In this document: positions 8,583 to 27,338 of the stretch, piece by piece
Layout: every line of letters begins with the position of its first letter
How positions within the stretch are numbered: the first letter of the stretch is position 1
NCBI GenBank assembly: GCA_020442275.1
Contig: JAGRKN010000015.1
Coordinates: 11,369-75,368, forward strand
Direction: 5' to 3'
Origin: Rhodoblastus sp.
GTDB taxonomy: Bacteria > Pseudomonadota > Alphaproteobacteria > Rhizobiales > Beijerinckiaceae
Length of the DNA stretch: 64,000 nucleotides
Program-made: the position numbers and the translations under genes
The notes under the pieces: model-generated
Databases searched by the model: none
What the model was told of the DNA's origin: nothing
The model's input: the letters and a program-made list of their open reading frames with translations, nothing else

Positions 8583-11500
8583 CTAACCGCAGCCGCCGGA
8601 CGAAGCATGGCAATCGGAGCACGTTTCGCACGTGCCGGTTCGGATCATTCGCGTCGAGCCGCATGCGGAGCAGATGCTGCCGCTGTAGGAGGCCTCTGGC
8701 TTCGGCGGCGGCGCCTTGCGAGGCGCGGCGGCCGGGGCTGGCGCGGGCAATGCGGGCTCGGGCTTGTTGGGAACGCCGAGCCCGGTATGGCCGTTGTCAT
8801 TCTCGTCCGGCTTGACGTTCGCGAGGTCGAAGCGATCGAGGTAATTGATCGCGAGATCGCGGAACACGAAGTCGAGGAGCGAGCGCGTCATCTTGATGTG
8901 ATCGTGATCGCGGACGAGGCCGGCCGGCTCGAAGCGGGTGTCGACGTATGCGTCGACGTATTCCTCGAGCGGCACGCCGTACTGCAGGCCGATCGAGATC
9001 GCCATCGCGAAATTGTTCATCAGCGAGCGGAAGGCGGAGCCTTCCTTGTGCATGTCGAGGAAGATCTCGCCGAGCGAGCCGTCGGCGTAATTGCCGGTGC
9101 GAAGATAGATCTTGTGGCCGCCGACATTTGCCTTCTGCGTGTAGCCGAGACGCTTGGCGGGCAGCTTGCGGCGTCCGTGCACGACGGCGTCGGCCATGAG
9201 GGCGGCGACCGTCTGGACGTCGACCTTGTCGGCGGCGACGCCGGCGGCGGCGAGCAGGGAGGCGGTCAGCGGTTGCGAGAGCTTGGAGCCGTCGCGATAC
9301 AGCGCGATCGCCTTCAGGCCGAGGCGCGCGCCGTACTCATAGGCGAGCTGGCAGTCGCGCACCGTGGCCTCGCGCGGCATGTTAATCGTCTTGGAGATCG
9401 CGCCCGACAGGAACGGCTGGCAGGCAGCCATCATCTGGAGGTGCGCCTGCCATTTGAGCGCGCGGCCGGTCGGTCCGACCGGATTCGCGCAATCGAAGAC
9501 GGTGCAGTGCTCGTCCTTGAGGTACGGCGCGTTTTCGACCGAGCCGGTGCCGCCGTAATAGACGTCGATCTGGGCGATGTCCTCGTCGGTGAGGCCGAGG
9601 TGAGTGGCGAGGCCAAGGCCGATTTCGCGAGTCGTGCCGACGGCCGACAGATCCTCGGTCGCGAAATCCTCGGCCGACAGGGCGCGCTTGAGGCCGAGGC
9701 CGGCCTTCATGCGGGAGGCGATGGTCGCGAGCATGGCGTCGGAGACGCCGCGGCTGTGGAGGTGCTCGATGGCGGAGGCCGGCAGGTCGCCGTGACCAAT
9801 GATGTGGGCGACGATTTCCGTCTTCTGCGCGTCGGGATAGCCGAGCGCGTCGAGGGCGGGCGCGATGGAGTCCGAGCAGATGCGCAGGAAGCCGCCGCCG
9901 GCGAGCGTCTTGTACTTGATGAGCGAATAATCGGGCTCGATGCCGGTGGTGTCGCAGTCCATTGCGAAGGAGATCGTGCCGGTCGGCGCGAGAACGGTCA
10001 CTTGCGCGTTGCGGAAGCCATAGGTCTCGCCGTCCGCGACGGCACGCGCCCAGTAGCGGTCGGACAGCGTGACGAGCTCGGTGTAGCTCGTCGGCATGGA
10101 GGCGCGGTCGAGCGGACGCGGCGCGTTCGTGATGCCGATGTACTTGCCTTGGAGCGCACCGGCGGCGATCGCGTGGTTGCGGATGACCTCGTTCATGCGG
10201 CCGTTCGGCATGTAGCCGGCAAACGCGCCCTTTTCGGCGGCCATTTCGGCCGAGGTCGCGTAGGCGACGGCGGTCATGAGGGACGTCAGCGCGCCGGCGA
10301 CCGCGCGCCCGGGCGCGGAATCGTAGCCGAAGCCCATGCGCATAAGCAGCGAGCCGAGGTTGGCGTAGCCGAGGCCCAGCGTCCGGTACATCCAGGAGAG
10401 TTCGGCGATCTTCGGCGATGGGAACTGCGCCATGACGACCGAGATCTCGAGGACGAGCGTCCAGAGGCGGCAGGCATGCGCGTAGCCCGTCGCGTCGAAA
10501 TGACCCTGGCCGTCGTAGAAGGCGACGAGGTTCAGCGACGCGAGATTGCAGGCGGTGTCGTCGATGAACATGTATTCCGAGCAGGGATTTGAGCCCCGGA
10601 TCGGCCCGGCATGCGGGCAGGTGTGCCAGTCGTTGATCGTCGTCTTGAGGTGGATGCCGGGGTCGGCGCACTGCCAGGCGCGATGCGCGACCGTGTTCCA
10701 GAGCGTGCGCGCATGAATGGTCTTGGCGATCTTGCCGTCGGTGCGGCGGATCAGGTTCCAGTCCTCGTCCTTGGCGACGGCGCGCAGGAAGGCGGCCGGG
10801 AGCGCGATGGTGTTGTTGGAATTCTGGCCGGAGACGGTGCGGTAGGCCTCCGAATCCCAGTTGGCGACGAAGGTCGGGAAGTCGATCGCGATGCCCTGCT
10901 GGGCTTCGCGGATCGCGCGATCGATGAGGCCGTCCGGGACGAGATCCTTGCGCGCAGCGCCGATTGCGCCCGCAAGCGTCGAATTGGTGGATGGGTCGGC
11001 GCCATTGGCGGCGGCGTCGGCGATGGCGCTGACATGGCGGAAGCACAGGTGCGAGCCGGCAATGAGCGCGGCGACCTTGTTTTCTTCCTGGGCCTTCCAG
11101 TCGACGAAGGCTTCGATGTCCGGATGGTCGGCGTCGACGATGACCATCTTGGCGGCGCGGCGGGTCGTGCCGCCGGACTTGATTGAGCCGGCGGCGGCGT
11201 CGCCGATCTTGAGGAAGGACATTAGGCCGGAGGACTTGCCGCCGCCGGAAAGCTTCTCGTTCTCGCCGCGCAGCGTCGAGAAATTGGTGCCGGTGCCCGA
11301 GCCGTACTTGAAGATGCGCGCTTCGCGCATCCACAGATCCATGATGCCGCCGTCGTTGACGAGGTCGTCGTCGATCGACTGGATGAAGCACGCGTGCGGC
11401 TGAGGTCTCTCGTAGGCCGAAGACGAGGGGATCGGCTCGCCGCTCTCCGGGTCGGGGTAGTAATGGCCCTGGGCCGGGCCGTTGATGCCGTAGGCCCAAT

Positions 11501-11945
11501 GGAGGCCGGTGTTGAACCACTGGGGCGAATTCGGAGCGGCCATCTGGCGCTCCAGCATCGCGATGATCTCGCGATGGAAGTTGCGGGCGTCGTCTTCGGC
11601 GTCGAAATAGCCGAATTTCCAGCCCCAGTAGGTCCAGCAGCCGGCCATGCGGCCGAGCGCCTGGGCGATCGAGGTCTCGCCACCGAAAGAGGCGTCGGGC
11701 GCGGGCTCGCGGCGCTGGATCCATTCGGGCACGCCGTCTTCGTGAATCGGCACCGTCTTGTCGGGAACGCCGGCGCGGCGCAGGTATTTCTGGGCGACGA
11801 TGTCGATCGCCGACTGCGACCAGGTGGCGGGCGCCTCGATGTTGCTGTGCTCGAAGATTACGGCGCCGTCGGCGGCGGTGATCTTGGAATGCGCGATGCA
11901 GTACGCCGGATTGTGGTCGATGGCGTAACGCTGCTCGATTTTCAT
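8583..11945 (-). CDS. nrdJ: Adenosylcobalamin-dependent (class II) ribonucleotide reductase with C-terminal Cys-rich tail
   Basis: 1120 aa. Contains [41 protein letters not shown]. The tail is [29 protein letters not shown] after a P/A-rich linker. Confidence 0.93.
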
Positions 11946-15330: not shown

Positions 15331-15656
15331 ATCGCGATTTGCGTCACGCCGGGGATCTGGACGATCTCGTCGGTGAAAGTTTCGTCGGGCTGGAACTTTC
15401 GGAGGTTGAGGGCGATCTCGACCTCCGAGTTGTAGCTCGCCATTTCCAGCACGATGACGAGGCGGCGATTGTCGCCGATGCCGGACCGGCCGTAGGCGAG
15501 GTAGGCGGCGCGGATGGCGTCGAGCGCTGTGACGCCGGCAGCCTCCTGGACGTGGATGCGGACGGGGTGGCCGGGTGATGCCGGGACGACAACGGCTCGT
15601 TGCGCGAGGCGCGGCGCTTCGTCGACAAGGGCGAGATCGAAATCGAGATTGCTCAT
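15327..15656 (-). CDS. Hypothetical protein (109 aa) translationally coupled to dnaE
   Basis: ATG at 15656 (MSNLDFDLALV...) overlaps the dnaE stop as ATGA. Its stop overlaps the stop of the convergent plus-strand gene (CTAG). Confidence 0.55.
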   Translation of the reverse strand: MSNLDFDLALVDEAPRLAQRAVVVPASPGHPVRIHVQEAAGVTALDAIRAAYLAYGRSGIGDNRRLVIVLEMASYNSEVEIALNLRKFQPDETFTDEIVQIPGVTQIAI

Positions 15657-18600
15657 GCGACCTTCGCTTTCGCGCGCGCGAGCTTGCGCGCGCTGTAGGC
15701 GGCGGCCGGCGTCCATTCGAGAATGGTGCGCTGTGCGCCGATGCGCACGACGTAGACGCCTGGGCCGTCACGGGTGGGTGGAGGCGGCAGGAGGCCGCCT
15801 TTCATGACGGCGCGCAGGGTCGTTTGTCCGTCATCGAGGACGACGGCGATGCGCGAATCCTGCTCCTCGATCTGGGCGAAGACGGCGAGCGCTTCGGTCG
15901 AGACCGTCTTGGACGCCTTTCCGGCGGCGGCCAGCGTATGGACGCGGACGTTGTCGACCAGATGGGCGAATTGATCCGTCGGATGGCGCGTGAGCGAGAA
16001 GCCGTAGGCCGAGGCCTCCATCGCCGCCATTTCGGCGCGGGTAAGCGGCGTGATGCCGCGGACGTGCGGCGAGGCGGCGAAGAGCTGGGGCCCGGAAGGC
16101 GCGTCGCCGCTCTCCAGCTCGGTGAGATAGAGCTGGCGCGAGGTTTCTGGAGGGATGGTCGCATCGAGGGTGTCGAAAGCGCCGGCGCGGATGAGAAGCT
16201 CCATCGTGTGCTTCTTGACGACGGCCGACATCCGCTTGCGGAACTCGACGAAATCGAAAAAGGGGCCGTTGGCTTCGCGCTCGAGACGGATGGCGCGCGC
16301 GACGTCGTGACCGACGCCTTTGATACCGGAGAGCGCGTAGACGATGGAGTTGGCTTCGCCGTTGGTTTCGAGCGTGATGTCGAAGAGTTCGCCTGAAAGA
16401 TTGACGTCAGCCGGTGTGATCGGGACGCCGAGGCGACGGATTTCGGCGACGTCGATTTCGAGGCGGCCGGTGGAATTGGCGTCCTGGTCCATGCAGGCCG
16501 CCATGTAGGCCTGATAGTGATGGGCCTTGAGCCAGGCCGTGACCGAGGTGATGCGGGCATAGGCCGCCGCGTGCGAGCGGTTGAAGCCGTAACCGGCGAA
16601 TTTCGCGACCATGGCGAAGATGTCGCGCGCCTGTGCTTCCGTCATGCGCGGTTCGAGCGTAGCGTTGGCGACGCAGCCTTCGATGAAGGACTTTTCGAGC
16701 GCGGCCATTTCTTCCGGGATCTTTTTGCCCATGGCGCGGCGCAGGAGATCGGCTTCCGCCAGGCTGTAGCCGGCCAGGCGACGGGCCAGATCCATGATCT
16801 GTTCCTGGTAGATCGGAATCCCGTAGGTCGAATGGAGAACCGCGGCCAGCGCCGGATGCGGGTAAGCGATCGGCGCATAGCCTTTCTTGCGGGCGGCGTA
16901 GATGGGGATCTGGTCCATCGGGCCGGGGCGATAGAGCGAGATCAGCGCGACGATATCTTCGAAGCTCGAGATGCCGACGCGCGAGATCGCCCGCTTCATG
17001 CCGGTCGATTCCAGCTGGAAGACGTTGATGGTCCAGCCCTGGCGGAGCATGTCGAAGACGGTTGCGTCTTCGTAGGGCGTCTTCCACGGATCGAAGATTG
17101 CTCCGGTCTTGGCGGCCAGTTCGCGCGCACGGTCGATGATGGTCAGGGTCTTGAGGCCGAGGAGGTCGAACTTCAGCAGGCCCTGGTTGTCGATCGACTT
17201 CATGTCGAACTGGGTTGCCGGGATGCCGGCCGGCGCGCCTTCGTTGTCGGAGAGCGGCGTGATCGATTCCAGCGGATCGTCGGCGAGCACGACGCCGGCG
17301 GGATGGCGCGTCTTGTGAGCGACGACGCCTTCGATCTTGATGGCCGACTGCATTGCCTCGGCGCATTCGACGTCGGAGCCGAGCGCTTCGCGCAGCGCCG
17401 GGCTTTCGGTCAGCGCGGCCTCGAGCGAGTCGACCTTGTCCGGGATGAGGTCGGCGATGCGCTTTTGCTGTCCGGGCGTCAGGCCGAGCGCGCGGCCGGC
17501 GGTGCGCCAGGCGGCCTTCGGCTGCAGGGTTTGCCAGGCGCCGATCTGGGCTACGTGGTCGAGCCCGTAGCGATCGACGATATAGGCGACGACGCGGTCG
17601 CGGCGGCGCTCGCAGAAGTCGATGTCGAAGTCGGGCGGCGAGACGCGCGAGGGGTTGATGAAGCGCTCGAAGAAGAGGCCGAGCTCGATCGGATCGAGAT
17701 CGGTAATGCCGAGGCACCATGCGATGAGCGATCCCGCGCCGGAGCCGCGGCCAGGGCCGACCGGAATGCCGGAGGCTTTTGCAGCATTGACGAAGTCGGC
17801 GACGATCAGGAAGTAGCCGGCAAAGCCGAGCTTGATGATGATCTCGATTTCCATCGCGTAGCGCGCGTCATAGGCGGCGCGGTCGCTGATGCCGTGTTCG
17901 GAAAGACGCTTTTCGAGCCCTTGCGCCGAGACGGTCCGCAGGGTCGCCTTCTCGTCGACGCCCTTGAATGTCGGCATCGACGGCTTGTTCTGGGTGAGCG
18001 CAAAATTGCAGCGGGTGGCGAGCGCGATGGCGTTGTCGGTCGCTCCGGGCAGATCGGCGTAGAGCTCGCGGATTTCTCCGTCGGACAGGTAGTGGGCGAC
18101 CGGCCAGCGCGGCTTCTGGTCTTCGCCGAGAATGTTGATGATGTCGGTGTCGACGGATTCCGCGACGACCGGGATCGGCGCGGCGATCGAGGGGATCGAG
18201 AGCGATGCGGCCTTGCGCGCGACGGCGCGCCCCTGGAGGCCGCCGGCCGAGCGTGCGATGGCGAAGGCGAGCCGATCGGCGGGCAGCCCGGCGATGAGGG
18301 CGGCGATCGCTTCGTGATCGGTGGCAGCCCATGCGGTCGCGGCTGGGCAGCCGGCGTCGATCGAGATGAACAGGGGCGCCGCGGCAAGGGCGGCGATGAG
18401 CTGGGCAAGGTTGAATTGCTTCAGGCGCAGCTCGTTCGAGATGCGGCAGAGCGCCGGCCAGCCCGGGGCGTCCTCGATGTGGACCGCGATTTCGAGGTCG
18501 TCGAGGACGAGACGCGTCCCCAGAACGGCTTTGAGGCCCTTTTTCTTGGCCTCGAGCGATAGTTCGTAGGCGCCGGCGAGGGCCTGGTCGTCGCAGAGCG

Positions 18601-18706
18601 AGGCGACGCCCGACGTTTTGGCGAGCGCGACGATCTTCTTCGGGCTGAGCAGGGAGCGGCCGGTCGTGTAATGACTGGCGGCGTAGAGGAGCGGGATCGC
18701 GCTCAT
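15653..18706 (-). CDS. dnaE: C-family DNA polymerase (Pol III alpha-like), short form with degenerate PHP domain
   Basis: 1017 aa from ATG 18706 (MSAIPLLYAASHYTTG), overlapping the dnaQ stop as ATGA. Hallmarks: PPDFDIDF, GLLKFDLLGLKTLT, FNRSHAAAYA, HhH IKGVGHDVARAI, QLF clamp-binding-like motif at 16079-16087, and an OB fold at the C-terminus. There is no tau-binding tail. The listed 1351-aa ORF N-terminus is R/P-rich junk overlapping dnaQ. Confidence 0.9.
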   Translation of the reverse strand: MSAIPLLYAASHYTTGRSLLSPKKIVALAKTSGVASLCDDQALAGAYELSLEAKKKGLKAVLGTRLVLDDLEIAVHIEDAPGWPALCRISNELRLKQFNLAQLIAALAAAPLFISIDAGCPAATAWAATDHEAIAALIAGLPADRLAFAIARSAGGLQGRAVARKAASLSIPSIAAPIPVVAESVDTDIINILGEDQKPRWPVAHYLSDGEIRELYADLPGATDNAIALATRCNFALTQNKPSMPTFKGVDEKATLRTVSAQGLEKRLSEHGISDRAAYDARYAMEIEIIIKLGFAGYFLIVADFVNAAKASGIPVGPGRGSGAGSLIAWCLGITDLDPIELGLFFERFINPSRVSPPDFDIDFCERRRDRVVAYIVDRYGLDHVAQIGAWQTLQPKAAWRTAGRALGLTPGQQKRIADLIPDKVDSLEAALTESPALREALGSDVECAEAMQSAIKIEGVVAHKTRHPAGVVLADDPLESITPLSDNEGAPAGIPATQFDMKSIDNQGLLKFDLLGLKTLTIIDRARELAAKTGAIFDPWKTPYEDATVFDMLRQGWTINVFQLESTGMKRAISRVGISSFEDIVALISLYRPGPMDQIPIYAARKKGYAPIAYPHPALAAVLHSTYGIPIYQEQIMDLARRLAGYSLAEADLLRRAMGKKIPEEMAALEKSFIEGCVANATLEPRMTEAQARDIFAMVAKFAGYGFNRSHAAAYARITSVTAWLKAHHYQAYMAACMDQDANSTGRLEIDVAEIRRLGVPITPADVNLSGELFDITLETNGEANSIVYALSGIKGVGHDVARAIRLEREANGPFFDFVEFRKRMSAVVKKHTMELLIRAGAFDTLDATIPPETSRQLYLTELESGDAPSGPQLFAASPHVRGITPLTRAEMAAMEASAYGFSLTRHPTDQFAHLVDNVRVHTLAAAGKASKTVSTEALAVFAQIEEQDSRIAVVLDDGQTTLRAVMKGGLLPPPPTRDGPGVYVVRIGAQRTILEWTPAAAYSARKLARAKAKVA

Positions 18707-19350
18707 GGGGCGGGTTCCCTGTGCTGCGGCGCGAGGAGGGGAATCTGGATCGGGGTGCGGTCGGTTTCCTCGGTTTGCGCGAGGAGCGCATCGAGGAAAT
18801 CGCCCTGCGTGCGCGGCGTGTCGAGCATGACGCGCATGCGGCAATAGGCGGTGGCGAGCAACTCGCAGTCGACGAGAGCCTCGTGGTAGGTCGAGCGCGC
18901 GTCGGTCGAAATGTTGAGACGGCGGCATACGGCGTCGAGCGAGACGGGTTTGCCTGGCCATAGCCGCTTGGCGATGTTGATCGAATCCTCGACCGGAACG
19001 GCGAGCGTGATGTCGGGAAAGCCGACGCGCAGGCATTCGGCGGACAGGAAGCGCATGTCGAATGGCGCGTTGTGCGCGATGAGGCGGGAATCGCCGATGA
19101 ATTCGGCAATCGGAGGCCAAGCGTCCTGGAATAGGGGCGCGGTCGCGAGATCGTCGTCCTTGATGCCGTGGACGAGGAACGAGGACCATTGGACAGGGAC
19201 GCCCTCGGGATTGACGCGTCGTTTGATCGAACGGCCCGTCGGTCGCAGATCGATGATCTCGACGGCGGCTATCTCGATGACGCGATGGCCGGCGTCGGGA
19301 TCGAGGCCGGTCGTTTCGGTGTCGATGACGCAGGCGCGGGTTGGCGACAT
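18703..19350 (-). CDS. dnaQ: DnaQ-like 3'-5' proofreading exonuclease (Pol III epsilon family)
   Basis: Exo I VIDTETTGLD, Exo II LIAHNAPFDMRFL, Exo III YHEALVDCELL. ATG 19350 is preferred over the listed TTG 19377, which lies inside the terminator U-run. Confidence 0.88.
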   Translation of the reverse strand: MSPTRACVIDTETTGLDPDAGHRVIEIAAVEIIDLRPTGRSIKRRVNPEGVPVQWSSFLVHGIKDDDLATAPLFQDAWPPIAEFIGDSRLIAHNAPFDMRFLSAECLRVGFPDITLAVPVEDSINIAKRLWPGKPVSLDAVCRRLNISTDARSTYHEALVDCELLATAYCRMRVMLDTPRTQGDFLDALLAQTEETDRTPIQIPLLAPQHREPAP

Positions 19351-19375
19351 TGGTTTTCGGGTTGCCGGATGGTCC

Positions 19376-19418
19376 AAAAGACGGCGCCGGCGTCACTTCG
19401 GGAGAAGTCGCCGGCGCC
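19376..19418 (-). terminator. Strong hairpin (terminator or attenuator candidate) between the DUF736-like gene and dnaQ
   Basis: GGCGCCGGCG (19383-19392) pairs with CGCCGGCGCC (19409-19418), extended by ACTTC/GAAGT around a GGGA loop. On the minus strand it is followed 3 nt later by UUUU (19376-19379). Confidence 0.45.
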
Positions 19419-19439
19419 GAGGGTGCGAGGAACTGACGA

Positions 19440-19859
19440 TCAGTTCTTCTGGGACGGCTTGTCGTTGCCGAGCGAGTAGAAGGGGCTCTTGGCCGGCGAG
19501 CCGTCGGACTTCTTGTCCTTGTAGAAGCCGACGACATTGAAGGTGGCGCGTGCGCCGTTGTAGTCGTGCTCGAAGCTGAAGCGGATCGCGCCCTTGCCGA
19601 TCTGGCCGAAGAAGCGGGTCTTGAACATCGCGCCGCTGAACGCGGGCTCGGACGAGGTCTGGCCGTTTTCGCGGCGGGCGGCCGAGAAACGGTAGTACTC
19701 GGAATCATTCTTCGACTTCTGCGGCGTCGGATCGATCGTCATGGCGTATTCGACGTTGTCGATCTTGATCGTGCCGGAGATGGCGTTGTTGTCGCCGGTG
19801 AACAGGCTGCCGACGATCTTCGCGTCGAGGGCGACCGGCGGCTTGGCGTATTCTGTCAT
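19440..19859 (-). CDS. Hypothetical protein (139 aa), possibly DUF736-like
   Basis: SGTIKIDNVEYAMTIDPTPQKSKNDSEYYRFSA loosely resembles the DUF736 pattern (TGTI.TL....v.i.P........PD.R) common on alphaproteobacterial conjugative elements. The family call is tentative. Confidence 0.6.
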   Translation of the reverse strand: MTEYAKPPVALDAKIVGSLFTGDNNAISGTIKIDNVEYAMTIDPTPQKSKNDSEYYRFSAARRENGQTSSEPAFSGAMFKTRFFGQIGKGAIRFSFEHDYNGARATFNVVGFYKDKKSDGSPAKSPFYSLGNDKPSQKN

Positions 19860-19908: not shown

Positions 19909-22251
19909 TCAGGCGGCCCGTTTGGTCTGCTGCAGGACGTCGGAGACGATCTGCGTCAGAAGGATCGGGAGTTCTGACGTGTCACGGATATTTCTCCAGC
20001 CGGGAATCTTCATCGTCGGGGCGTTCGGACCAATGCCGATGCCGACGAGGTAGACGCCGGATCTGATTATTCCGTTGGCGGCGCTGAGCGTGCGTTTTCG
20101 ATCGCTGGCTTCTCCGTCCGTGATGAGGAAAAGGATTTTACGCTTCTCCGAGCGCAAGCGAAGCGCCTTTTGCGCTTCGAGCAAACCGAAATGGGTCGGG
20201 GTGCCGCCGTTTTCGCCGTCGGCCGGAATTGCGCCGATGGCGCTCTTGAGAGCGCTGGGGGCGTCGGTGAACCGCTTGATCCATTTGATCAGGTGGGAGG
20301 CTGGCGCGCTGGTGTAGGTCAGCGCCGCCGTGTGCACGTCGCGGTCGGTTCCGATCGCAGAAGCGAGCGCTGCTGTCGCTTCGGCGAGATGATCGAGGCG
20401 GGTTTTTCCGGAGCGATCTTTTTCGCGCATCGAGGCCGAGAGGTCGAGGCAGAAGACGACGGATGCCGCGCGATCCTTGCGGGCGTCGCGACGGGAATAG
20501 ATGTCGGACGACCCGGTCGAGATGCCGATCAGGTTGCTGAGATCGAGATCGCCATCCTCGAGCTGGAAGCGTTCGCGGCGGTAGGTTTCCGACGTGAGCA
20601 GCTTGCGCGCGGCCTGGGCGACGCGCGCGGCCGATGCGCCGCCCTTTTGGAGCAGGCGATGGTAATTGGGCATGTCGCGATCGTCGCTGATGCGGATCTC
20701 GATGCGCGACAGGTCGTGTTCGTCGGCGCCGGCGCCGGTCGCCTTGACGATGGCTGCGATCACGTCGCTGACGTCGAGCGCAGTTGTCGGAATGGCGTCG
20801 CTATCAGCAGTCGGCGAGAGCGGCGCGGCGCCGCCCGAACTGGCGCCTTGCTGCGACGGGCTGCCGGAACCGGCGGTCACGCCGCCGCCGGCCTGGCCGT
20901 GCGATGCCTGCTGCTGCGGCTGCTGGCCCTGTGGACCGGCGGATTGTGATGTGCCGCCGGGCGCCGCGCCGCTTTGCGGCGGCGAGCCCGAGCTGGAGGA
21001 ACCAGGCTGGGCGTCATGATCGGCGCCTTGAGCAAGTTTCGACGGATCGCCGGTATTGTCCTGCTGGGGCGCCGGCGCGTGCTGATCGGAAGCGCCGGCG
21101 CCTTGGCCGTCGGCCGTATTGTTGTTCTTCTGGTCGTTGGATTGGCCGCCGGAGCCGCCTTGAGGTTGGTTCTGGTCCGACGGAGAGGTTCCGTCAGCGC
21201 CGGTGGGCGGGTTGGCGTCGGATTTGGTGTCCTTGGGGTCGCCAGATGGGTCGGAGTTCGTGGCGTCGGGTTTGGTTTGGGGCTGAGCGCCCGACGAAGG
21301 GTCGGCCTGATCGTCCGTCTTGCTTGAATTGGAGTCGGATCGATCGGAGCCGTCGTTGCCCTTGCCAGCGCCGGGCTGCGACGAAGGCTGATTCTGCTGG
21401 GGTGAGTTCTGCGGCTGCTGTTGCTGCTGGGCCTGCTGCTGCGGAGGCGGCGGCGGGGGATCCTTCTTGAAATATTTGTTGGCGCATTCGACAGCGATGT
21501 CGAAAGCGAGCTCCATGACCTCTCGATGGGAGCCGAGCTGAAGAATGGCTGGCCAATAGGCGTCGAGCATCTGACGCCCGTCCGGGCAGAGCGCGCTGGC
21601 GCGGTCGAGATTGGCTTTGGCGATTGCGGCGCAGGGGTAGGCGTTGTCGATGCAGCCTGCCCAGGTGATCATGGCGCCGAGCGCGTTCGGCATGGGCATT
21701 TCGGTGACGCCGGCCAGCTCGGCGGCCTGGCGCTCATTCACGTGGAGGCGCGTTTTGGCGATGTTCAGGAACGAGCCGGGATAAGCGCGCTTGATCGCGC
21801 GCTCGATGCGCCAGTCCTCGATGGTGTTGTCGATGTACTGCGAAGTGCGCCAGATCCAGTATTCCTTTTCGTCGATGCCGAGCGCTGCACGCTGTTCGGG
21901 CGTGTCGATCTTTTCTCTGGAGTTCGGCGCGCCAAGGATCTTGCCGAGGACGGCGGAGAGTTTGCGCTTGGCGAACGTCCAGACGTAGGGGATCTCGCTG
22001 TAGAGGACGTGCGCGCATTCGTGGTTGGAGTAGCCACGCAGAACGAGCGCCTTGGATTCTGGATATTGCTCGGTCGAGGAAAGCTCGGGGATGCGGATCG
22101 TGGGTACAGCGGCCGGCGTCGTGTAGGCGACATAGGCCTGCGCGCCGGCGAATTCGACCGGAATCTTGGCGCCGGTGAGCGCGGAAATCGTGCTTTCGAT
22201 TTCTCCGCGCAGAATGTACCCCGGAATGGTTTTCTCGATGGGCGACGACAT
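19909..22251 (-). CDS. CobT-like VWA protein with N-terminal HExxH motif and long disordered linker
   Basis: 780 aa from ATG 22251 (MSSPIEKTIPG). HECAH at residues 77-81 (22009-22023). P/Q/S/G/D-rich low-complexity region at residues about 263-485. C-terminal VWA with MIDAS DLSAS (603-607) and LFLITDGEASD. The listed 994-aa ORF N-terminus overlaps the upstream gene and looks non-coding. Confidence 0.8.
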   Translation of the reverse strand: MSSPIEKTIPGYILRGEIESTISALTGAKIPVEFAGAQAYVAYTTPAAVPTIRIPELSSTEQYPESKALVLRGYSNHECAHVLYSEIPYVWTFAKRKLSAVLGKILGAPNSREKIDTPEQRAALGIDEKEYWIWRTSQYIDNTIEDWRIERAIKRAYPGSFLNIAKTRLHVNERQAAELAGVTEMPMPNALGAMITWAGCIDNAYPCAAIAKANLDRASALCPDGRQMLDAYWPAILQLGSHREVMELAFDIAVECANKYFKKDPPPPPPQQQAQQQQQPQNSPQQNQPSSQPGAGKGNDGSDRSDSNSSKTDDQADPSSGAQPQTKPDATNSDPSGDPKDTKSDANPPTGADGTSPSDQNQPQGGSGGQSNDQKNNNTADGQGAGASDQHAPAPQQDNTGDPSKLAQGADHDAQPGSSSSGSPPQSGAAPGGTSQSAGPQGQQPQQQASHGQAGGGVTAGSGSPSQQGASSGGAAPLSPTADSDAIPTTALDVSDVIAAIVKATGAGADEHDLSRIEIRISDDRDMPNYHRLLQKGGASAARVAQAARKLLTSETYRRERFQLEDGDLDLSNLIGISTGSSDIYSRRDARKDRAASVVFCLDLSASMREKDRSGKTRLDHLAEATAALASAIGTDRDVHTAALTYTSAPASHLIKWIKRFTDAPSALKSAIGAIPADGENGGTPTHFGLLEAQKALRLRSEKRKILFLITDGEASDRKRTLSAANGIIRSGVYLVGIGIGPNAPTMKIPGWRNIRDTSELPILLTQIVSDVLQQTKRAA
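21409..21459 (-). repeat. Trinucleotide (CCG)n-(CAG)n coding tract
   Basis: The plus strand reads ctgcggctgctgttgctgctgggcctgctgctgcggaggcggcggcggggg and encodes PPPPPPQQQAQQQQQPQ inside the CobT-like linker. Confidence 0.6.
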
Positions 22252-22280
22252 CGTCGCCGCCCCGGCGGTCGATGCGCGGG

Positions 22281-23897
22281 TCACTTCCAGTCGTCTCCGT
22301 AGATTTGCCTGCCGAATTCCTCCGCCGCGCTGACGTCGGAGGCGAGCGGGACGCGGTTGATGAGGATCGTGCGGATCGCTTCGACCTCCGCGGCCTTGCG
22401 TTCGAGCGGGTCGCGCGGATTGAGGCCTTCGATCCAGTTGGCGACCGCCGTGAGCTGACGATAGGAGCATGTGGTCGAAAGGCGGTTGGAGACGAAGGCG
22501 CTGCGCATCAGGTTGGCGTAGCTGATGCAGCGCTGGGCGCTGTCGCGCGGCAGGCCGGGGCAGTCGGCCAGGATGGTGGCGAGCTCCTGGTCCTCGGGCA
22601 TGTATTTGCAGTCGATCCAGAGCGGAAAGCGGTCGCGCGTGGCTTCCGACATTTCCTGCCGCAGGCCGTAGGGGTTCTCGCCGTCGTCGCGACCCTTGGT
22701 GTTTGCGGTCGCGAGAATCGCGTGATCGGGATGCGGCGCGATGAACCGGCCGCCGTCGTCGAGAATGGTGATGCCTTTGCGTTCGTAGGCCTGGTGGGCG
22801 ACGTACTGCAGGTCGGGGTCGGCGCGGTCGATTTCGTCCATGTCGATGATGGACGGCATCGAGATCGCCTTGGTGAGCAGGCCATCGAACCATTGCGTTT
22901 CCGAGCCGCGCTCGGTCGTGATCTGCTTGAAGCCGCCGATCATGTCGCGCTTGCGCATTTCGCCATGGACGGGGATGCGGAAGAAGGGGCGGCCGAGGTG
23001 CGCGGCCAGGGCTTCAGCCATGGTCGTCTTGCCGCAGCCGGTCGGCCCGACGAGAACGGAGTTCAGACCCTTGGCGATGCCCCATAGCGCCTGACGCAGC
23101 GAGACCGGATCGAAAGCGTAATTGGGGTTCGCGATCGGCACGTAGGGGTGGGGCGCATCCCAGGTGTAGACAGGGATGTCGAAGGTGAAGCGATGGGCGT
23201 GTTCCGGCGGGATTTTCGTCGCGAACACGGAAGCGGCCGGCAGCATGCGCATCGTGCCCGACGGCAGCGGCCCCTCGGCCGGAATGGGCGTGACCGCCTT
23301 GCGCGCGTGCATGCCGCCCTTGGCGAGAATCTTCTGGGCGTTGTCGAGGGATTCGATGATCTGGAAGACGCTGCGCACGGAGCCGTTGGTCGCCTGTGCG
23401 ACGATGCGATCGGCGGTCGACAGCAGGGAGCGGTCGATTTTCGGGATCGCGAGCGGCGTGTAGGTCGGCGTGGCTGTGTCGTCGGCCGCAGGCGCCGCCG
23501 CCGCGGATGCGTCGCCGCCAGCGGGCGCGACGGGCGGTTCGAGATCGCGCAGGAGGTCGCGCATCTCGGGATCCTTCAGCTTCGTCATTTCTTGGACGAA
23601 GCTGCGAAGGTCGGCATTGGTTGTGAGCTTCTGGATGCGCTCGTTCTGGGTGAGCGCCGGATCGGTGAAGTCGGGAACATACGGCGTGATCTCGGCGAGG
23701 GTCGCCGTCAGGGCTCCGGCGATCGCGTCGGTCCACAGGGCCGGATCCTGACTGGCGTCGGCCATCAGGCTCGTAAACAGCGCGCGGTGCGGATGATCGG
23801 CGGCTGTGACGTCGAAGCGCGATGCGCCGGCAGGCAGGAGCTTCTTGATGAGATAGAGCGCGATCATGCGGAGCGCGATCTGGCTGGATTTCGTCAT
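22281..23897 (-). CDS. CobS-like AAA+ ATPase (AAA_5/MoxR-related) with roughly 220-aa N-terminal extension
   Basis: 538 aa from ATG 23897 (MTKSSQIALRM). The CobS-like pre-ATPase segment is FDIPVYTWDAPHPYVPIANPNYAFDPVSL. Walker A VGPTGCGKTT, Walker B IIDMDEIDRADPD, then PHPDHAILATANTKGRDDGENPYGLRQEMSEATRDRF. Confidence 0.85.
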   Translation of the reverse strand: MTKSSQIALRMIALYLIKKLLPAGASRFDVTAADHPHRALFTSLMADASQDPALWTDAIAGALTATLAEITPYVPDFTDPALTQNERIQKLTTNADLRSFVQEMTKLKDPEMRDLLRDLEPPVAPAGGDASAAAAPAADDTATPTYTPLAIPKIDRSLLSTADRIVAQATNGSVRSVFQIIESLDNAQKILAKGGMHARKAVTPIPAEGPLPSGTMRMLPAASVFATKIPPEHAHRFTFDIPVYTWDAPHPYVPIANPNYAFDPVSLRQALWGIAKGLNSVLVGPTGCGKTTMAEALAAHLGRPFFRIPVHGEMRKRDMIGGFKQITTERGSETQWFDGLLTKAISMPSIIDMDEIDRADPDLQYVAHQAYERKGITILDDGGRFIAPHPDHAILATANTKGRDDGENPYGLRQEMSEATRDRFPLWIDCKYMPEDQELATILADCPGLPRDSAQRCISYANLMRSAFVSNRLSTTCSYRQLTAVANWIEGLNPRDPLERKAAEVEAIRTILINRVPLASDVSAAEEFGRQIYGDDWK

Positions 23898-24000: not shown

Positions 24001-25587
24001 TCAGCGGGAAAGGCTGGCGCGCTCGCGCGGTTGGGAAATCGCCTGTTCGCCGGAGAATATCTTCAGCATGTTCTGCGACTCCGCGAAGCTGCGCTTCACG
24101 ATCTCGTGGTGATCGGAACCCTTCGGTCGCGATTCGAGCGTCGTGAATACGTCGAAGCGCTTGGCGACGGCTTGACGGCCGTATTCGATGATTTCGTCCG
24201 GCGTGAAGGTCTTCGGCGATATCGGCTTGACGAGGCGCGTTGTGGCTTTGTTGCGGCCAAAGCAGATTTCATTCTTCTGCAGCAGGAGAAAGCGTTTCGA
24301 GTTGCGCGGGCGCACGGCGAAGACGGTGCGCAGCCCATCGTGCAGGCCGTAGATCTTGATGTTGTGAGGCTGGCCTGCGGAGAGGTCTTTCCAGGGGCGA
24401 TATTTGGTCGTCGGAGTTTCCGGACCCTTGGCGATGAAATTCTCGATCTTGCGGTACTTGTCCATGCTGCCGTGCATGTAGGTCGATGCGCCCATATCGA
24501 TCACGGTGTAGGCCTGCTTGTCGAAGCCGGCTTCGGTGTGGGCGCGCGCGCCGCGGCCGTTGATCTGGATCCACTCGGAACGTGAAGTCGTTTCTTTCAG
24601 GCAAAGTAGACTTTGCGTGCGCGTCACATCGACGCCCTCCGTCAACATGTTGACGCTGCTCAGCACCTGGACGCGTCCGGCGCGATAGTCGGCGAAAGCC
24701 TTTTCGCGGAGGGCCGGCGAGAGGTCGGAATGGACGACTGCGGCCTTGATGCCGGCCTCTTGGAAGGCCGCGCACAAGAGATCGGCGTCCTTGATCGTGT
24801 TGGTGTAGGCGAAGGTTGGAACGGGCGTGCCGTTGTTCGCTTTCAGCCAGGCGCGGATCGAGGTGTCGAAGAAATCGTGGGGACGACTTGTGGCGAGCGC
24901 CTTCTGGATGCCGACCGCTGGTACGGACGGGTCGTTGGGATCGAGGATCTCGTCGACGGTTTCGGCGACGGTCTTGCCGTTCGAAAGCCGGTATTCGGGG
25001 CAGGTCACTTTTGGGGGCACGATTGCGCCGCAGCCGGCAGCCTCTTCGTAAGTGACATGAAAACGCTCGCCGTTGCAGAGCGCTGGATGGAGTTTGGCCT
25101 TGTCGGAGCGCTCGAGCGTCGCGCTCGTGCCCATGACGACGGCATTGGGATTGATCTTGAGGACGGCGTTGATGATTGCTGAATGCTGTGCCTCTTCGTC
25201 GGCCGTCGCGTGGTGGCATTCGTCGATCCATACGGCGTCGCGGTGGCCGATCGCATGACGATTGGCGTACAACGTCTTGGTTATTCCGTAAGCGGCCTGG
25301 CCGGACGGGTCGAATTCTCCGTTGATCGAGAGACTGGCGTCTTTGACGCCAAGTGAATTGGCCCTGGCTATGTTCTGCGCGCCGATTGCCTGGCGATCCT
25401 GGACGACGAGGACACGGAAATCGGGTCTTTCGGCGATGAGACGCTGAAAGACGTCGATGGCCATGTTGGTTTTCCCGAAGCCGGTTGGCGCGGAAATGAC
25501 GATGTTTTTGCCGGAAAGGAGGGCGGCGGCGGCAGCCGTCGTCACCTGTTCCTGCAGTTCAGTGCGGCGGGCTAAATCGACAGCCAT
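24001..25587 (-). CDS. SF2 helicase (ResIII/DEAD-like N-lobe plus Helicase_C)
   Basis: Motif I SAPTGFGKT, motif II VWIDECHH, motif III-like GTSATL, and C-lobe VLSSVNMLTEGVDV...INGRGAR. Confidence 0.85.
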   Translation of the reverse strand: MAVDLARRTELQEQVTTAAAAALLSGKNIVISAPTGFGKTNMAIDVFQRLIAERPDFRVLVVQDRQAIGAQNIARANSLGVKDASLSINGEFDPSGQAAYGITKTLYANRHAIGHRDAVWIDECHHATADEEAQHSAIINAVLKINPNAVVMGTSATLERSDKAKLHPALCNGERFHVTYEEAAGCGAIVPPKVTCPEYRLSNGKTVAETVDEILDPNDPSVPAVGIQKALATSRPHDFFDTSIRAWLKANNGTPVPTFAYTNTIKDADLLCAAFQEAGIKAAVVHSDLSPALREKAFADYRAGRVQVLSSVNMLTEGVDVTRTQSLLCLKETTSRSEWIQINGRGARAHTEAGFDKQAYTVIDMGASTYMHGSMDKYRKIENFIAKGPETPTTKYRPWKDLSAGQPHNIKIYGLHDGLRTVFAVRPRNSKRFLLLQKNEICFGRNKATTRLVKPISPKTFTPDEIIEYGRQAVAKRFDVFTTLESRPKGSDHHEIVKRSFAESQNMLKIFSGEQAISQPRERASLSR

Positions 25588-25673
25588 GACGGAATTTCCT
25601 GCGACGCGGATATTTTAACGAAGTCGCGGCCGGTCTACAATGACGGACGAAAATCATTGCAACGGAGAAATCC
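25588..25673. promoter_or_regulatory. AT-rich divergent control region (SF2-helicase operon leftward, orf554 rightward)
   Basis: Minus-strand GTTAAAAT (hexamer 25612-25617) lies 25 nt upstream of the helicase ATG. Three ACGGA copies (25589-93, 25643-47, 25662-66). SD GGAG lies before ATG 25674. Confidence 0.4.
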
Positions 25674-27338
25674 ATGGCGGCGCTGTCGAGCTTTCTGACA
25701 CGATCCGGGCGTGTTGCCGGACGTGGCGCGAAAGAAGCGGAGAAGATCGAGGAGCATGCGCCGGCTGGGTTTTTGAGCCGGGCCCGGCGATCGGCGGAAA
25801 GCGCCGTCGGCGTCGGCGGCGACGTTGCGTCAGGCCTTCTCGGGGGCGGCGCGGGCCTTGGGCGTCTCGGGAGGATCGGAGTTGGGATCGGCGCTTTGGG
25901 CGTCGCTGCAGCCGAGATGGAAGAGATCATCCGGCTCGTGAAGTTTGTCGGGGAGTTCGTGCACGATCCGAAGGGCGCGCTGACGCATCTTTTCGGCGGG
26001 CAGACGGAGGGCGACAAGCAGCATGCGATTCAGGCCGCGAAGGCTGCAACCGGTGGAGCGCCGAACAAGGCCGCTGCGATGCTTTCGTCGTTGGCGCCGG
26101 GCGGGGGCGCGAAGGTGGACATGCCGTCGTTCGACGCGACGCGCGTTGCGATTCATGAGCCAGGTCGGGCGAAGGAGCATGGCGCGCGGGCGGCCATGCA
26201 GATGGGGCCGCATGGCGGGCCGCGCACGATCGAGGAAGCCTATTTGCGGTCGGTGGAGATGGCGGAGAAGAATGGCCAGCCGATCAAGCCGGGCTCGATC
26301 GTCGAAATGGAATTCGTTCAGAATGGCAGGAAGAGCCATGTCAACGTCGAAGCGGTCGACGGCAAGAGCTTTCTGCCGATCGCCGGCGAGAACGGCCGGT
26401 CGCAGCTGATCCTGCCGCGTGGCTTCGAGACGGCGGATTACGCGAAGGAAGCGGGCAAGCGGCTGGAAGCGGCGAGCGGCATCGCGATCGATGCGCGCGC
26501 CGGCGTTCCGGGACGCGAGGGCGGCTTCGCGACGATCGGGCCGGCGCTGATGGCGTCGGGACGTGCGGACGGGCAGAGCGCGGAAGCGATCAAGCTCGCC
26601 GGCATGGGCATGGGTATCGGCGGTATCGGCGCGACGCAGGAGGTCGCCGGGCGGCGGATTGGCGCGCCTGACGATTCCGTCGCGATGTTCGCAAGCCGTG
26701 GGACCGCCGATGGCGGCCGGGCGTTGCGGTACGAGGGCGCGCTGATCGATGGCGGCCGCGCATCGCTGGTTCTGTCGACCAGCGGCCAGGGCGAGGCGCA
26801 GAAGACGGTGATGTCCGCGAAATCCGAGCGTCCCGGGCTCAACCGGATGGCGGTGGTGACCGGCTCGAGCACGGGGCTCGGCGGCGTTGGCGCCGACGGC
26901 AAGATCGCATTGTCGCGTGAAGGCCGTGAGTCCGTTCATGCGCTCGGCGAGGCCGCGGGGCGCAAGATCGACGTGCTGCTGGCCGGCACGGAGAAAATGG
27001 GCGCGAAGCGGGACTCGGCGGTCGTGATCGATCGCGACTCTGGTCGTGCGGTCGAAAGCGTGTGGAGCGGCAATCGCATGGTGACCGTCAGCGACGGCCG
27101 CATCGATCTTGTGACCAAAGGCGCGGACGGCAAGCTGAGCGTGAAGTCGATCGAGGACCGTGAGGTGTCGGTCAATGCGAAGACTGGCACGACGCGCCTG
27201 TCGACGGCGGCGCTGACCGCTGTGTCGGAGTTTTCGCGCGCGCCGGCGTCGGGCGGCGCGGCGATCGAGGCCAAGGATTTCATGGCGAGCCTGCCGGTGC
27301 GCGCGCCGCGCAGCGGCGGCGTCGGCGTCGGCGACTGA
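25674..27338 (+). CDS. Hypothetical protein (554 aa), G/A-rich
   Basis: Long ORF with a good SD (ACGGAGAAATCCATG). One hydrophobic G/A-rich segment near residue 45-75. No recognised domain. Confidence 0.6.
   Translation: MAALSSFLTRSGRVAGRGAKEAEKIEEHAPAGFLSRARRSAESAVGVGGDVASGLLGGGAGLGRLGRIGVGIGALGVAAAEMEEIIRLVKFVGEFVHDPKGALTHLFGGQTEGDKQHAIQAAKAATGGAPNKAAAMLSSLAPGGGAKVDMPSFDATRVAIHEPGRAKEHGARAAMQMGPHGGPRTIEEAYLRSVEMAEKNGQPIKPGSIVEMEFVQNGRKSHVNVEAVDGKSFLPIAGENGRSQLILPRGFETADYAKEAGKRLEAASGIAIDARAGVPGREGGFATIGPALMASGRADGQSAEAIKLAGMGMGIGGIGATQEVAGRRIGAPDDSVAMFASRGTADGGRALRYEGALIDGGRASLVLSTSGQGEAQKTVMSAKSERPGLNRMAVVTGSSTGLGGVGADGKIALSREGRESVHALGEAAGRKIDVLLAGTEKMGAKRDSAVVIDRDSGRAVESVWSGNRMVTVSDGRIDLVTKGADGKLSVKSIEDREVSVNAKTGTTRLSTAALTAVSEFSRAPASGGAAIEAKDFMASLPVRAPRSGGVGVGD

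Follow-up and report, generated by a model that had tools for sequence, protein, structure and literature searches.

A CobS/CobT-like AAA+/VWA gene pair with a conserved HExxH motif among the replication genes of a mobile element from Rhodoblastus sp.

The DNA considered here is a stretch of 64,000 nucleotides (nt) from contig JAGRKN010000015.1 of Rhodoblastus sp. (the window, within which all positions are counted), and the subject is a pair of minus-strand genes, separated by 29 nt, that encode a CobS-like AAA+ ATPase and a CobT-like partner with a von Willebrand factor A (VWA) domain, and that lie in a cluster of replication genes. An earlier account of the pair, made from the letters of the DNA alone and referred to below as the sequence-only reading, is followed up in the present analysis. 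Conservation is described relative to three alignments, of the CobT-like protein with six syntenic homologues at 23-60% identity (A1), of 24 CobT-like N-domains (A2) and of the CobS-like ATPase with 14 homologues (A3), and structure predictions are AlphaFold2 (AF2) models with their predicted local distance difference test (pLDDT) scores. The features of the two proteins, with lengths in amino acids (aa) and E-values after the family names, are the following.

22281..23897, minus strand: CobS-like MoxR-class AAA+ ATPase, 538 aa, ATG at 23897 (AAA_5 4.8e-19 at aa 280-424; best phage family phrog_249, the 'porphyrin biosynthesis' or CobS family, 8e-46)
23184..23897, minus strand: N-terminal extension of the ATPase, aa 1-238, predicted as a helical domain, a disordered stretch and a second helical region (AF2 model)
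23025..23048, minus strand: Walker A, GPTGCGKT, aa 284-291 (G284, G287, G289, K290 and T291 invariant in the 14 homologues)
22821..22850, minus strand: Walker B region, IIDMDEIDRA, aa 350-359 (D354 and E355 invariant)
22626..22712, minus strand: ATANTKGR (putative sensor-1 region) and EMSEATRDRF (arginine-rich) motifs, aa 396-424 (T397-G402 and M416-R423 invariant in A3)
19909..22251, minus strand: CobT-like protein, 780 aa, with N-domain, linker and VWA domain (profile and alignment evidence)
21460..22251, minus strand: CobT-type N-domain, aa 1-264, carrying a set of zincin-like motifs (AF2 pLDDT 97.1; A2 profile against CobT 9uka_G, E=4.6e-7)
22009..22023, minus strand: HECAH, aa 77-81, in predicted helix 65-84 (invariant in A1 and A2)
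21802..21828, minus strand: NTIEDWRIE, aa 142-150, in predicted helix 128-156, with candidate third metal ligand(s), a putative role (N142, D146 and E150 invariant, E145 in at least 90% of A2)
20788..21459, minus strand: low-complexity linker, aa 265-488, rich in Q, S, G, P, A and D (composition; 214-224 residues with almost no hydrophobics)
19912..20607, minus strand: C-terminal VWA domain, aa ~549-780 (VWA_2 2.5e-12 at aa 598-714; VWA 1.5e-09; VWA_CoxE 2.9e-4, below cut-off)
[quoted passage not shown]

Every position that the sequence-only reading gave for the pair checks out, and its description of the partner (a VWA domain with a DLSAS MIDAS, a linker of about 220 aa and HECAH at 22009-22023) is borne out in each part. 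The N-terminal extension of the ATPase, which it had put at about 220 aa, is present and amounts to about 238 aa, because the alignment with solved CobS begins at residue 239.

Judged from profiles and alignments, the pair is CobS/CobT-like at the superfamily level and not orthologous to the chelatase subunits. The best NCBIfam match of the ATPase is the CobS family TIGR01650 (95.7 bits, E=2.8e-27, aa 240-488), and in the alignment with solved CobS (9ujv_A, E=1.1e-28) CobS residues 26-277 fall on aa 239-489, so that the same ATPase core, an AAA_5 module, is shared over nearly the whole of CobS and takes in the pre-ATPase segment FTFDIPVYTWDAPHPYVPIANPNYAFDP (aa 237-264); the CobS pattern that the sequence-only reading had recognised, this segment included, is therefore real. 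The TIGR01650 score is nevertheless about six-fold below the curated equivalog cut-off of 558.55 bits, which places the ATPase outside the CobS equivalog, and identity is 27-31% to canonical CobS and 25-30% to the CobS-like ATPases of phages. The next-best solved relatives are NorQ (2.8e-17) and CbbQ (1.2e-16), while the best-scoring solved match of the ATPase core is Midasin/Rea1 (1.4e-37), a score that sums repeated AAA_5 modules. Midasin/Rea1, which pulls assembly factors off a large complex via its MIDAS domain, is unlike the window pair a eukaryotic single chain with six AAA modules and no CobT-type domain.

The N-terminal extension is absent from CobS and poorly conserved among the homologues of the ATPase. 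Its AF2 model has a mean pLDDT of 70, with aa 1-120 at 80-89 and aa 125-152 below 50; the model gave no fold match in the Protein Data Bank (PDB), and the extension gave no Pfam match. Analogy with other AAA+ proteins suggests sensor-1 and arginine-finger roles for ATANTKGR and EMSEATRDRF, and the two motifs were also used as family-specific search patterns for relatives. An ATPase homologue that is 96% identical (P0003, 885 aa) carries a 347-aa intein in Walker A, after K290 (GPTGCGK, intein, T), which the window copy lacks.

The partner shares the plan of CobT, an N-domain of the Pfam family CobT (PF06213), a long flexible linker and a MIDAS VWA domain. The window protein itself scores 14.6 bits against PF06213 (E=0.024), below the gathering score of 26.1 bits; homology to CobT is supported at the level of the family, because 19 of the 24 A2 members match PF06213 at E<=1 (best E=3.8e-19), a syntenic homologue reaches 48.7 bits, and the A2 profile run against the PDB returns solved CobT as its sole match. 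The C-terminal family CobT_C (PF11775) has no match in the window protein, and one relative reaches 14.5 bits, which is below threshold. Among predicted viral structures (BFVD), a Foldseek search with the N-domain model finds phage 'CobT'/VWFA proteins, including those of haloarchaeal tailed viruses, at query-normalised TM-scores (TMq) of up to 0.65 and a probability of 1.0. The linker occupies the position of the acidic linker of the relatives and of CobT, and the MIDAS is complete, with D603, S605, S607, T684, T686 and D712 invariant in A1. A gene for an ATPase of the AAA_5/MoxR clade thus adjoins one for a VWA protein with a complete MIDAS, as in MoxR/VWA pairs in general, and the two stand in the S-then-T order of canonical cobS-cobT.

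The feature that sets the partner apart from canonical CobT is its HExxH motif. About 0.02 occurrences are expected by chance in 780 aa, and a single occurrence would be weak evidence; the motif counts as a signal because it is conserved across homologues, with H77, E78 and H81 invariant throughout A1 and A2. An exhaustive search of 1.84 billion representative proteins for the N-domain returned 47 relatives, of which 44 retain the N-terminus, every one of these with HExxH; most carry EDxRIE 30-70 residues after it, and nearly all that reach the C-terminus carry a C-terminal DxSxS. The conservation on which the sequence-only reading had made its proposal depend is thus found. In the AF2 model, the N-domain consists of a helix, four short strands, the HExxH helix (predicted at pLDDT ~97) and a later long acidic helix carrying the EDxRIE residues, an order of secondary-structure elements that is gluzincin-like.

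In contrast to the window protein, in which HExxH and EDxRIE are both intact, solved CobT (9uka_G) has no HExxH and shows AVEQARVE in place of the family's NAIEDxRIE. The motif is absent from all five canonical CobT proteins checked, namely solved CobT and four canonical-type plasmid proteins (CobT or 'cobalt chelatase'), each encoded beside a cobS-type ATPase gene. At the level of sequence, the HExxH N-domain is the CobT N-domain (PF06213) in a form no longer present in canonical CobT, a point missing from the sequence-only reading. In a Pandoraea plasmid (L035 3386-6830) canonical-type cobS-cobT genes directly follow ureG, and in a Caballeronia plasmid (L034 3973-7580) they stand beside genes for a GTP-binding protein and an amidohydrolase, neighbours that hint at a use with other metalloenzymes.

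The genomic setting of the pair is a compact cluster in a window of 64% G+C whose real genes are nearly all on the minus strand. The order on that strand is superfamily 2 (SF2) helicase, AAA, VWA, a 139-aa open reading frame (ORF), DnaQ and DnaE, with gaps of 29-103 nt, and no terminator-like sites were found on the minus strand between the cluster genes. The members of the cluster other than the pair, with the region upstream of it, are listed here.

25588..25673, no strand: divergent intergenic region, 86 bp, putative promoter region of the cluster (between the helicase start at 25587 and the gene 25674-27338(+))
24001..25587, minus strand: SF2 (DEAD/ResIII) helicase, first gene of the cluster (Pfam ResIII 1.3e-15, Helicase_C 4.2e-12)
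19440..19859, minus strand: conserved small ORF of 139 aa that separates the VWA gene from dnaQ (68% identical in L001)
18703..19377, minus strand: DnaQ-like 3'-5' exonuclease (RNase_T 1.8e-28)
~15653..18706, minus strand: DnaE (Pol III alpha), ~1018 aa, start abutting the dnaQ stop (DNA_pol3_alpha 1.8e-81, with finger and HHH_6 domains)

The single transcription unit that the sequence-only reading had proposed, starting from a promoter region near 25.6 kb, fits the tight gaps, the lack of terminator-like sites and the 86-bp divergent region, but a scan of 25588-25673 for the sigma-70 consensus found no match, and we only infer a promoter there. The neighbours named by that reading were recovered as well (SF2 helicase, dnaQ and dnaE), with one exception: the label 'DUF736-like' for the 139-aa ORF was dropped, since the ORF has no Pfam match at E<=1 and no PHROG match. 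Three related loci (L002, L003, L008) have ORFs of about this length called at the corresponding place, and the SF2 helicase directly precedes the AAA gene in all megaplasmid-type relatives with sequence there. The DnaE of the window is 81% identical to that of L001, a metagenomic contig whose dnaE start overlaps dnaQ by 4 bp. The 1351-aa 'DnaE' ORF listed at 15653-19708(-) is a frame extended too far, into overlap with both dnaQ and the small ORF. The ~1018-aa protein has no Pfam match to a PHP domain, whereas the DnaE proteins of Microvirga and of L003 do match. The 554-aa divergent gene upstream of the helicase (25674-27338(+)) is judged to be real because its G+C content at third codon positions is 0.82, against 0.69 for an antisense ORF of 519 aa; an oppositely oriented gene is also called at this place in L001, L002 and L003.

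The same arrangement recurs on other large elements. The order helicase-AAA-VWA-small ORF-DnaQ-DnaE is shared, at 30-45% protein identity, by L001 (in which the ATPase is 72% identical), by six Microvirga loci, two of them from the same 731-kb plasmid (pMVF16-3), by Bosea and by a metagenome-assembled genome (MAG) labelled Stutzerimonas. Alphaproteobacterial megaplasmids keep this order down to identities of 30-39%. A second, more distant clade comprises Erythrobacter aureus (408-kb plasmid), Sphingosinicella p1 (347 kb), a MAG labelled Mycobacterium and two metagenomic contigs that share one protein. The order in this clade is Strawberry-notch-like helicase, SF2 helicase, ORF, AAA, VWA, ORF and DNA methyltransferases, with ThyA-DHFR after the methyltransferases in L005, L006 and L007, and the Sphingosinicella p1 genes for DnaQ and DnaE follow 8-11 kb downstream on the same strand. 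The extra 230-aa ORF that precedes the ATPase gene in the clade-B plasmids shows no similarity to the N-terminal extension of the window ATPase. Plasmids of 347-731 kb carry relatives of the pair.

Phages and phage-plasmids carry a further set of relatives, found by tblastn with a phage-type N-domain in genomes of ~85-122 kb from Rhizobium, Pseudomonas, Salmonella, Klebsiella, Escherichia and Stenotrophomonas. In SSU5, nickie and BUCTxx99, DnaB, a primase and a ligase (the last without annotation in BUCTxx99) are followed by the CobT-like and then the CobS-like gene, one or two small ORFs and DnaE, and in V1VFA-S and the phage-plasmid pCP102 the pair again lies just upstream of DnaE. HExxH is kept in SSU5, V1VFA-S and pCP102. 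The CobT-like genes of Pseudomonas phage nickie (L029 9983-12067) and Stenotrophomonas phage BUCTxx99 (L031 9983-11968) are without it. The SSU5-type pair is present in 252 of 5,426 complete E. coli genomes, always on plasmids. For the region of the Enterobacter plasmid pCP102 that matches DnaE (L010 12752-16351), PLSDB has no annotation, and the region is divided between two ORFs of 785 and 397 aa. The phage-type ATPases (L029 12158-13384, L030 12414-13649, L031 11975-13159, L011 11432-12727, L010 11354-12577) share an N-terminal Cys/His motif with C18, H26 and H31 invariant, a pattern that suggests a small zinc-binding domain and that the window ATPase lacks.

A wider viral survey covered 80 diverse IMG/VR loci with CobS-like ATPases, collected using A3; a scan of the same resource with phage-type ATPases had returned 80 near-identical SSU5-like loci, which are unfit for statistics and were set aside for the A3 set. 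An adjacent ORF with a CobT N-domain is present in 43 of the 80 diverse loci, with a MIDAS in all 43 and HExxH in 42, and a DnaB-like helicase lies a few kb upstream in 22 loci. Of three representative loci, one has the pair one gene away from PolA, the second (L150) has it downstream of class I NrdA/NrdB by a few genes, and the third (L141) has it between gp46/47-like genes and a gp44-type clamp loader. A specific linkage to DnaE was tried as a general rule and rejected, as none of the 80 loci has DnaE within 10 kb. Given the PolA, NrdAB and clamp-loader settings, the common denominator is a replication or DNA-metabolism module and not one polymerase family.

Other genes of the window bear on what kind of element carries the pair. 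It encodes a VirD4/TraG-type coupling protein with an intein, ParB, a Strawberry-notch-like helicase, UDG, RecD-like and UvrD helicases, Rad52, topoisomerase IA, a primase-like protein, DnaN and the ribonucleotide reductase (RNR) NrdJ; no virion protein was matched among the 14 window ORFs scanned against PHROGs, and no tRNA gene was found in the window. From the coupling protein, the replication and repair genes and the lack of a virion match we conclude that the window belongs to a conjugative plasmid or an integrative and conjugative element (ICE), and not to a phage. Searches for near-identical DNA gave no match in the phage collection and a single 251-bp dnaE match in the plasmid collection, and a word-indexed homologue search with the N-domain alone, and then with its alignment, returned the window's own protein only. 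In the coupling protein (59973-63359(-), 1128 aa), Hint and LAGLIDADG domains mark the intein at about aa 199-483. NrdJ (8583-11945(-), 1120 aa), placed correctly at 8 kb from the pair by the sequence-only reading, has a C-terminal TSCPD domain and a barrel-domain match that is split in two, which may indicate an insertion.

The architecture of the pair is not new in viruses. A MoxR ATPase together with a VWA protein that has an N-terminal metallopeptidase was described in phages by Iyer et al. (2021; PMC7824862) and, as viral cobST, by Liu et al. (2021; PMC8651126), so that both the architecture and its HExxH count as known there, which the sequence-only reading had left out. Viral members include the SSU5 'porphyrin biosynthesis proteins', the cyanophage cobS with its 'peptidase', and the pairs of group 2.2 jumbo phages and of haloarchaeal tailed viruses. 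They resemble the window pair in the architecture of the partner, in the superposition of the N-domain model described above and in being part of replication modules, where in the ~110-kb siphophages they stand immediately upstream of DnaE, and differ from it in sequence (25-30% identity for the ATPase and ~25% for the N-domain), in gene order (T-S in the DnaE phages, S-T in the window), in the N-terminus of the ATPase (a Cys/His motif there, an orphan helical domain here) and in the host element. What is new is the non-viral host element, the N-terminal extension of the ATPase and the fixed place in a helicase-DnaQ-DnaE operon. A literature search found nothing that links cobST-like pairs to DnaE or replicase genes or to conjugative megaplasmids, nor any paper describing the solved CobS and CobT structures.

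Cellular and other MoxR systems offer more distant parallels. CbbQ/CbbO, NorQ/NorD, CoxD/CoxE, RavA/ViaA and p618/p892 of the virus ATV all place the same AAA_5-class ATPase beside a MIDAS VWA partner, but the partners in these systems are without the CobT-type N-domain or HExxH, and their clients are metabolic enzymes or virion parts, none of the systems lying in a replication operon. Proteins of the DUF2201_N (PF13203) and DUF2201 (PF09967) families have the same plan as the window partner, an N-terminal HExxH and a C-terminal VWA-like domain, and they too pair with MoxR ATPases; the two profiles nonetheless gave no match at E<=1 to the window protein or to the 24 N-domains. One relative of the pair (L005) encodes a DUF2201-type metallopeptidase-VWA-like protein about 9 kb upstream of it.

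As a description of the locus, the sequence-only reading holds: a CobS/CobT-like pair, no CobN in the window, an operon shared with a polymerase and a conserved HExxH. The three functions that it offered (cobalamin supply for NrdJ, remodelling for replication, and a peptidase-coupled conflict system) fare differently. We favour the second, tentatively and with a confidence a little short of the halfway mark: the pair would be a remodelling machine of MoxR-class AAA+/VWA type, from the CobS/CobT lineage, and would belong to the replication module of the element and not to cobalamin synthesis. By comparison with CobS, NorQ and CbbQ, the ATPase would form a ring on which the CobT-like partner docks via its N-domain, and the MIDAS VWA domain, on its flexible tether of ~220 residues, would capture a client protein by an acidic residue or peptide, and ATP hydrolysis would then remodel the client. 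In this clade the HExxH...EDxRIE site of the N-domain may bind a metal and would probably cut the client so captured. The client would most likely be associated with replication, either a component of the element's own DnaE/DnaQ replicase in need of assembly or activation, or a host protein, of the replisome or bound to DNA, whose displacement lets the element replicate. Observed are the homology, the unbroken catalytic motifs, the conserved HExxH and the gene order; the ring, its docking partner's action, the proteolysis and the client are inferred.

This remodelling function fits the conserved synteny best, and the Walker A intein of the 96%-identical homologue also suggests a role of this kind, as inteins typically occupy conserved sites of indispensable replication and nucleotide-metabolism proteins. 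The further idea of the sequence-only reading, that the pair compensates for a missing clamp loader, is without support. The ATPase was rejected as a clamp loader, having no match to DNA_pol3_delta2, Rad17 or Gp44_lid at E<=0.01 and matching the PHROG 'clamp loader' family at 2.4e-10 against 8e-46 for the CobS family; in contrast, the gp44-type loader in L141 matches Gp44_lid, Rad17 and DNA_pol3_delta2.

Several observations weigh against a remodelling protease of the replication module. A catalytic zincin site is only putative, because the N-domain model, for all its confident HECAH helix, has no significant zincin match in the PDB (best Foldseek E 0.47, with M3/M32 peptidases at a TMq of only 0.24) and no Pfam peptidase family is recurrent among the 24 N-domains. 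Nickie and BUCTxx99 have lost HExxH (DSEISK and DREVST at its place) with the gene order kept, and this loss, together with that in canonical CobT, means that proteolysis is not a universal core activity; with some lineages lacking the motif, the shared core would be remodelling, and proteolysis ancestral or accessory. The absence of DnaE from the neighbourhood of all 80 viral loci counts on the same side, as does the presence of NrdJ only 8 kb from the pair in the window, and adjacency to replication genes may reflect only the co-regulation of early DNA-metabolism genes, RNR included.

Four other explanations are all less consistent with the data than a replication-module machine, and only one of them is near exclusion for the window element. 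That a functional CobS/CobT joins the host's CobN as a cobaltochelatase, and so raises the cobalamin available to the element's NrdJ, is distinctly unlikely in our view, even though CobS is the closest single-domain relative of the ATPase, the N-domain of the partner is that of CobT, NrdJ is encoded nearby on the same strand, and the aerobic CobN pathway is the usual one in the alphaproteobacterial hosts of the relatives. Alphaproteobacteria with this pathway, however, already carry their own cobST, and E. coli, where the SSU5-type copies reside on plasmids of 252 genomes, to our knowledge has neither corrin ring synthesis nor CobN. A cobalamin role has been proposed for viral cobST (Liu et al., 2021; PMC8651126), but the viral relatives of the pair adjoin class I NrdAB, and SSU5-like elements carry nrdAB (PMC3999498). 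Against it stand also the scores (95.7 of 558.55 bits for the CobS equivalog, 14.6 of 26.1 bits for CobT, no CobT_C match), the lack of a match to CobN or the Mg-chelatase family among the 38 window ORFs scanned against Pfam, and the HExxH that canonical CobT lacks and the mobile-element family conserves. NrdJ, moreover, is not consistently linked to the pair: among plasmids with the pair it is found in Microvirga pMVF16-3 only, ~150 kb away, and it is absent from the Sphingosinicella, Erythrobacter and Enterobacter plasmids. Cobalamin supply is therefore weakly supported; it may apply to the window but leaves the family as a whole unaccounted for. Most characterised MoxR/VWA pairs mature metalloenzymes, and a chaperone of the NorQ/NorD, CoxD/CoxE or CbbQ/CbbO type, inserting a metallocofactor into an RNR or polymerase of the element with HExxH holding or handing over the metal, seems to us improbable to the same degree as the chelatase. 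Among solved relatives of the ATPase NorQ and CbbQ rank next, genes for RNR are repeatedly met near the pair (NrdJ in the window, NrdAB in L150), and the neighbours of canonical-type cobS-cobT noted above, urease accessory genes or a GTP-binding protein and an amidohydrolase, point the same way. No one metalloenzyme, however, is consistently adjacent across lineages, the class of RNR varies and in most plasmid loci no RNR is adjacent, and HExxH followed by an acidic helix is the classic signature of a peptidase and not of any known metallochaperone.

A conflict module, in which the pair captures and degrades a host immunity or stress protein as anti-defence or host takeover and shares the replication operon for its timing only, is more doubtful still. 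Only mobile elements (megaplasmids, phage-plasmids and phages) carry the pair, conflict systems that combine vWA-MoxR with peptidase effectors have been described (PMC7159879), and the ParB and Strawberry-notch-like helicase of the window are both part of the polyvalent, anti-restriction setting found in conjugative elements (PMC5512222). PADLOC, on the other hand, returned no match for the VWA protein and only P-loop matches of ~30 residues for the ATPase, the ternary VMAP component and the effector domains of the described conflict systems are absent, and the pair keeps its order and position within replication genes across wide evolutionary distances, unlike fast-shuffling defence or anti-defence cargo, so that the conflict function named by the sequence-only reading is not supported. 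Virion assembly, with the pair acting as chaperone and processing protease as has been proposed for the same architecture in group 2.2 jumbo phages (Iyer et al., 2021; PMC7824862; compare the tail-development MoxR/VWA pair of ATV), comes close to exclusion here: the 14 window ORFs scanned hold no virion match and the window does hold a conjugative coupling protein, the relatives lie on plasmids of 347-731 kb, and the phage copies of the pair stand in replication and not in structural modules.

The result bears on a common annotation. Viral 'cobS/cobT' are among the commonest 'auxiliary metabolic genes' in phage and virome annotation and are routinely read as vitamin B12 boosters, and we know of no function shown for them. 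The position among replication genes is the most consistent feature common to plasmids, phage-plasmids and phages, and HExxH is almost always kept in the mobile-element versions and lost in real CobT; these two features and the presence of the pair in E. coli, a host unable to use a cobaltochelatase, together speak against the B12 annotation, which is probably mistaken for the mobile-element family, and they undermine the routine reading of its cobST as a B12 auxiliary metabolic gene. If the client is a replisome or DNA-bound protein, the pair would be a new kind of replication accessory factor, and an origin of the chelatase motor would be suggested as well. On a broader view, which we put forward as unlikely, the pair may be a widespread, unrecognised replisome accessory of mobile elements, an ATP-driven, MIDAS-guided protease or unfoldase that clears a host replisome component or DNA-bound roadblock for the element's polymerase (DnaE, PolA or PolB), and cellular CobS/CobT may be a derived branch that lost the peptidase site and was recruited to drive CobN.

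Two further ORFs and the base composition of the window may be recorded. A 1301-aa ORF (47169-51074(-)), between the UvrD-like and primase-like genes, has no Pfam and no PHROG match, and a 321-aa ORF (51157-52122(-)) matches a phage primase family (phrog_6088, 3.1e-15) with no Pfam family at threshold. The plus-strand GC skew is +0.12 to +0.25 throughout the window, the third codon positions of the coding strand being C-rich in every gene tested (skew about -0.3), and the related loci show a GC skew of the same sign that is weaker.

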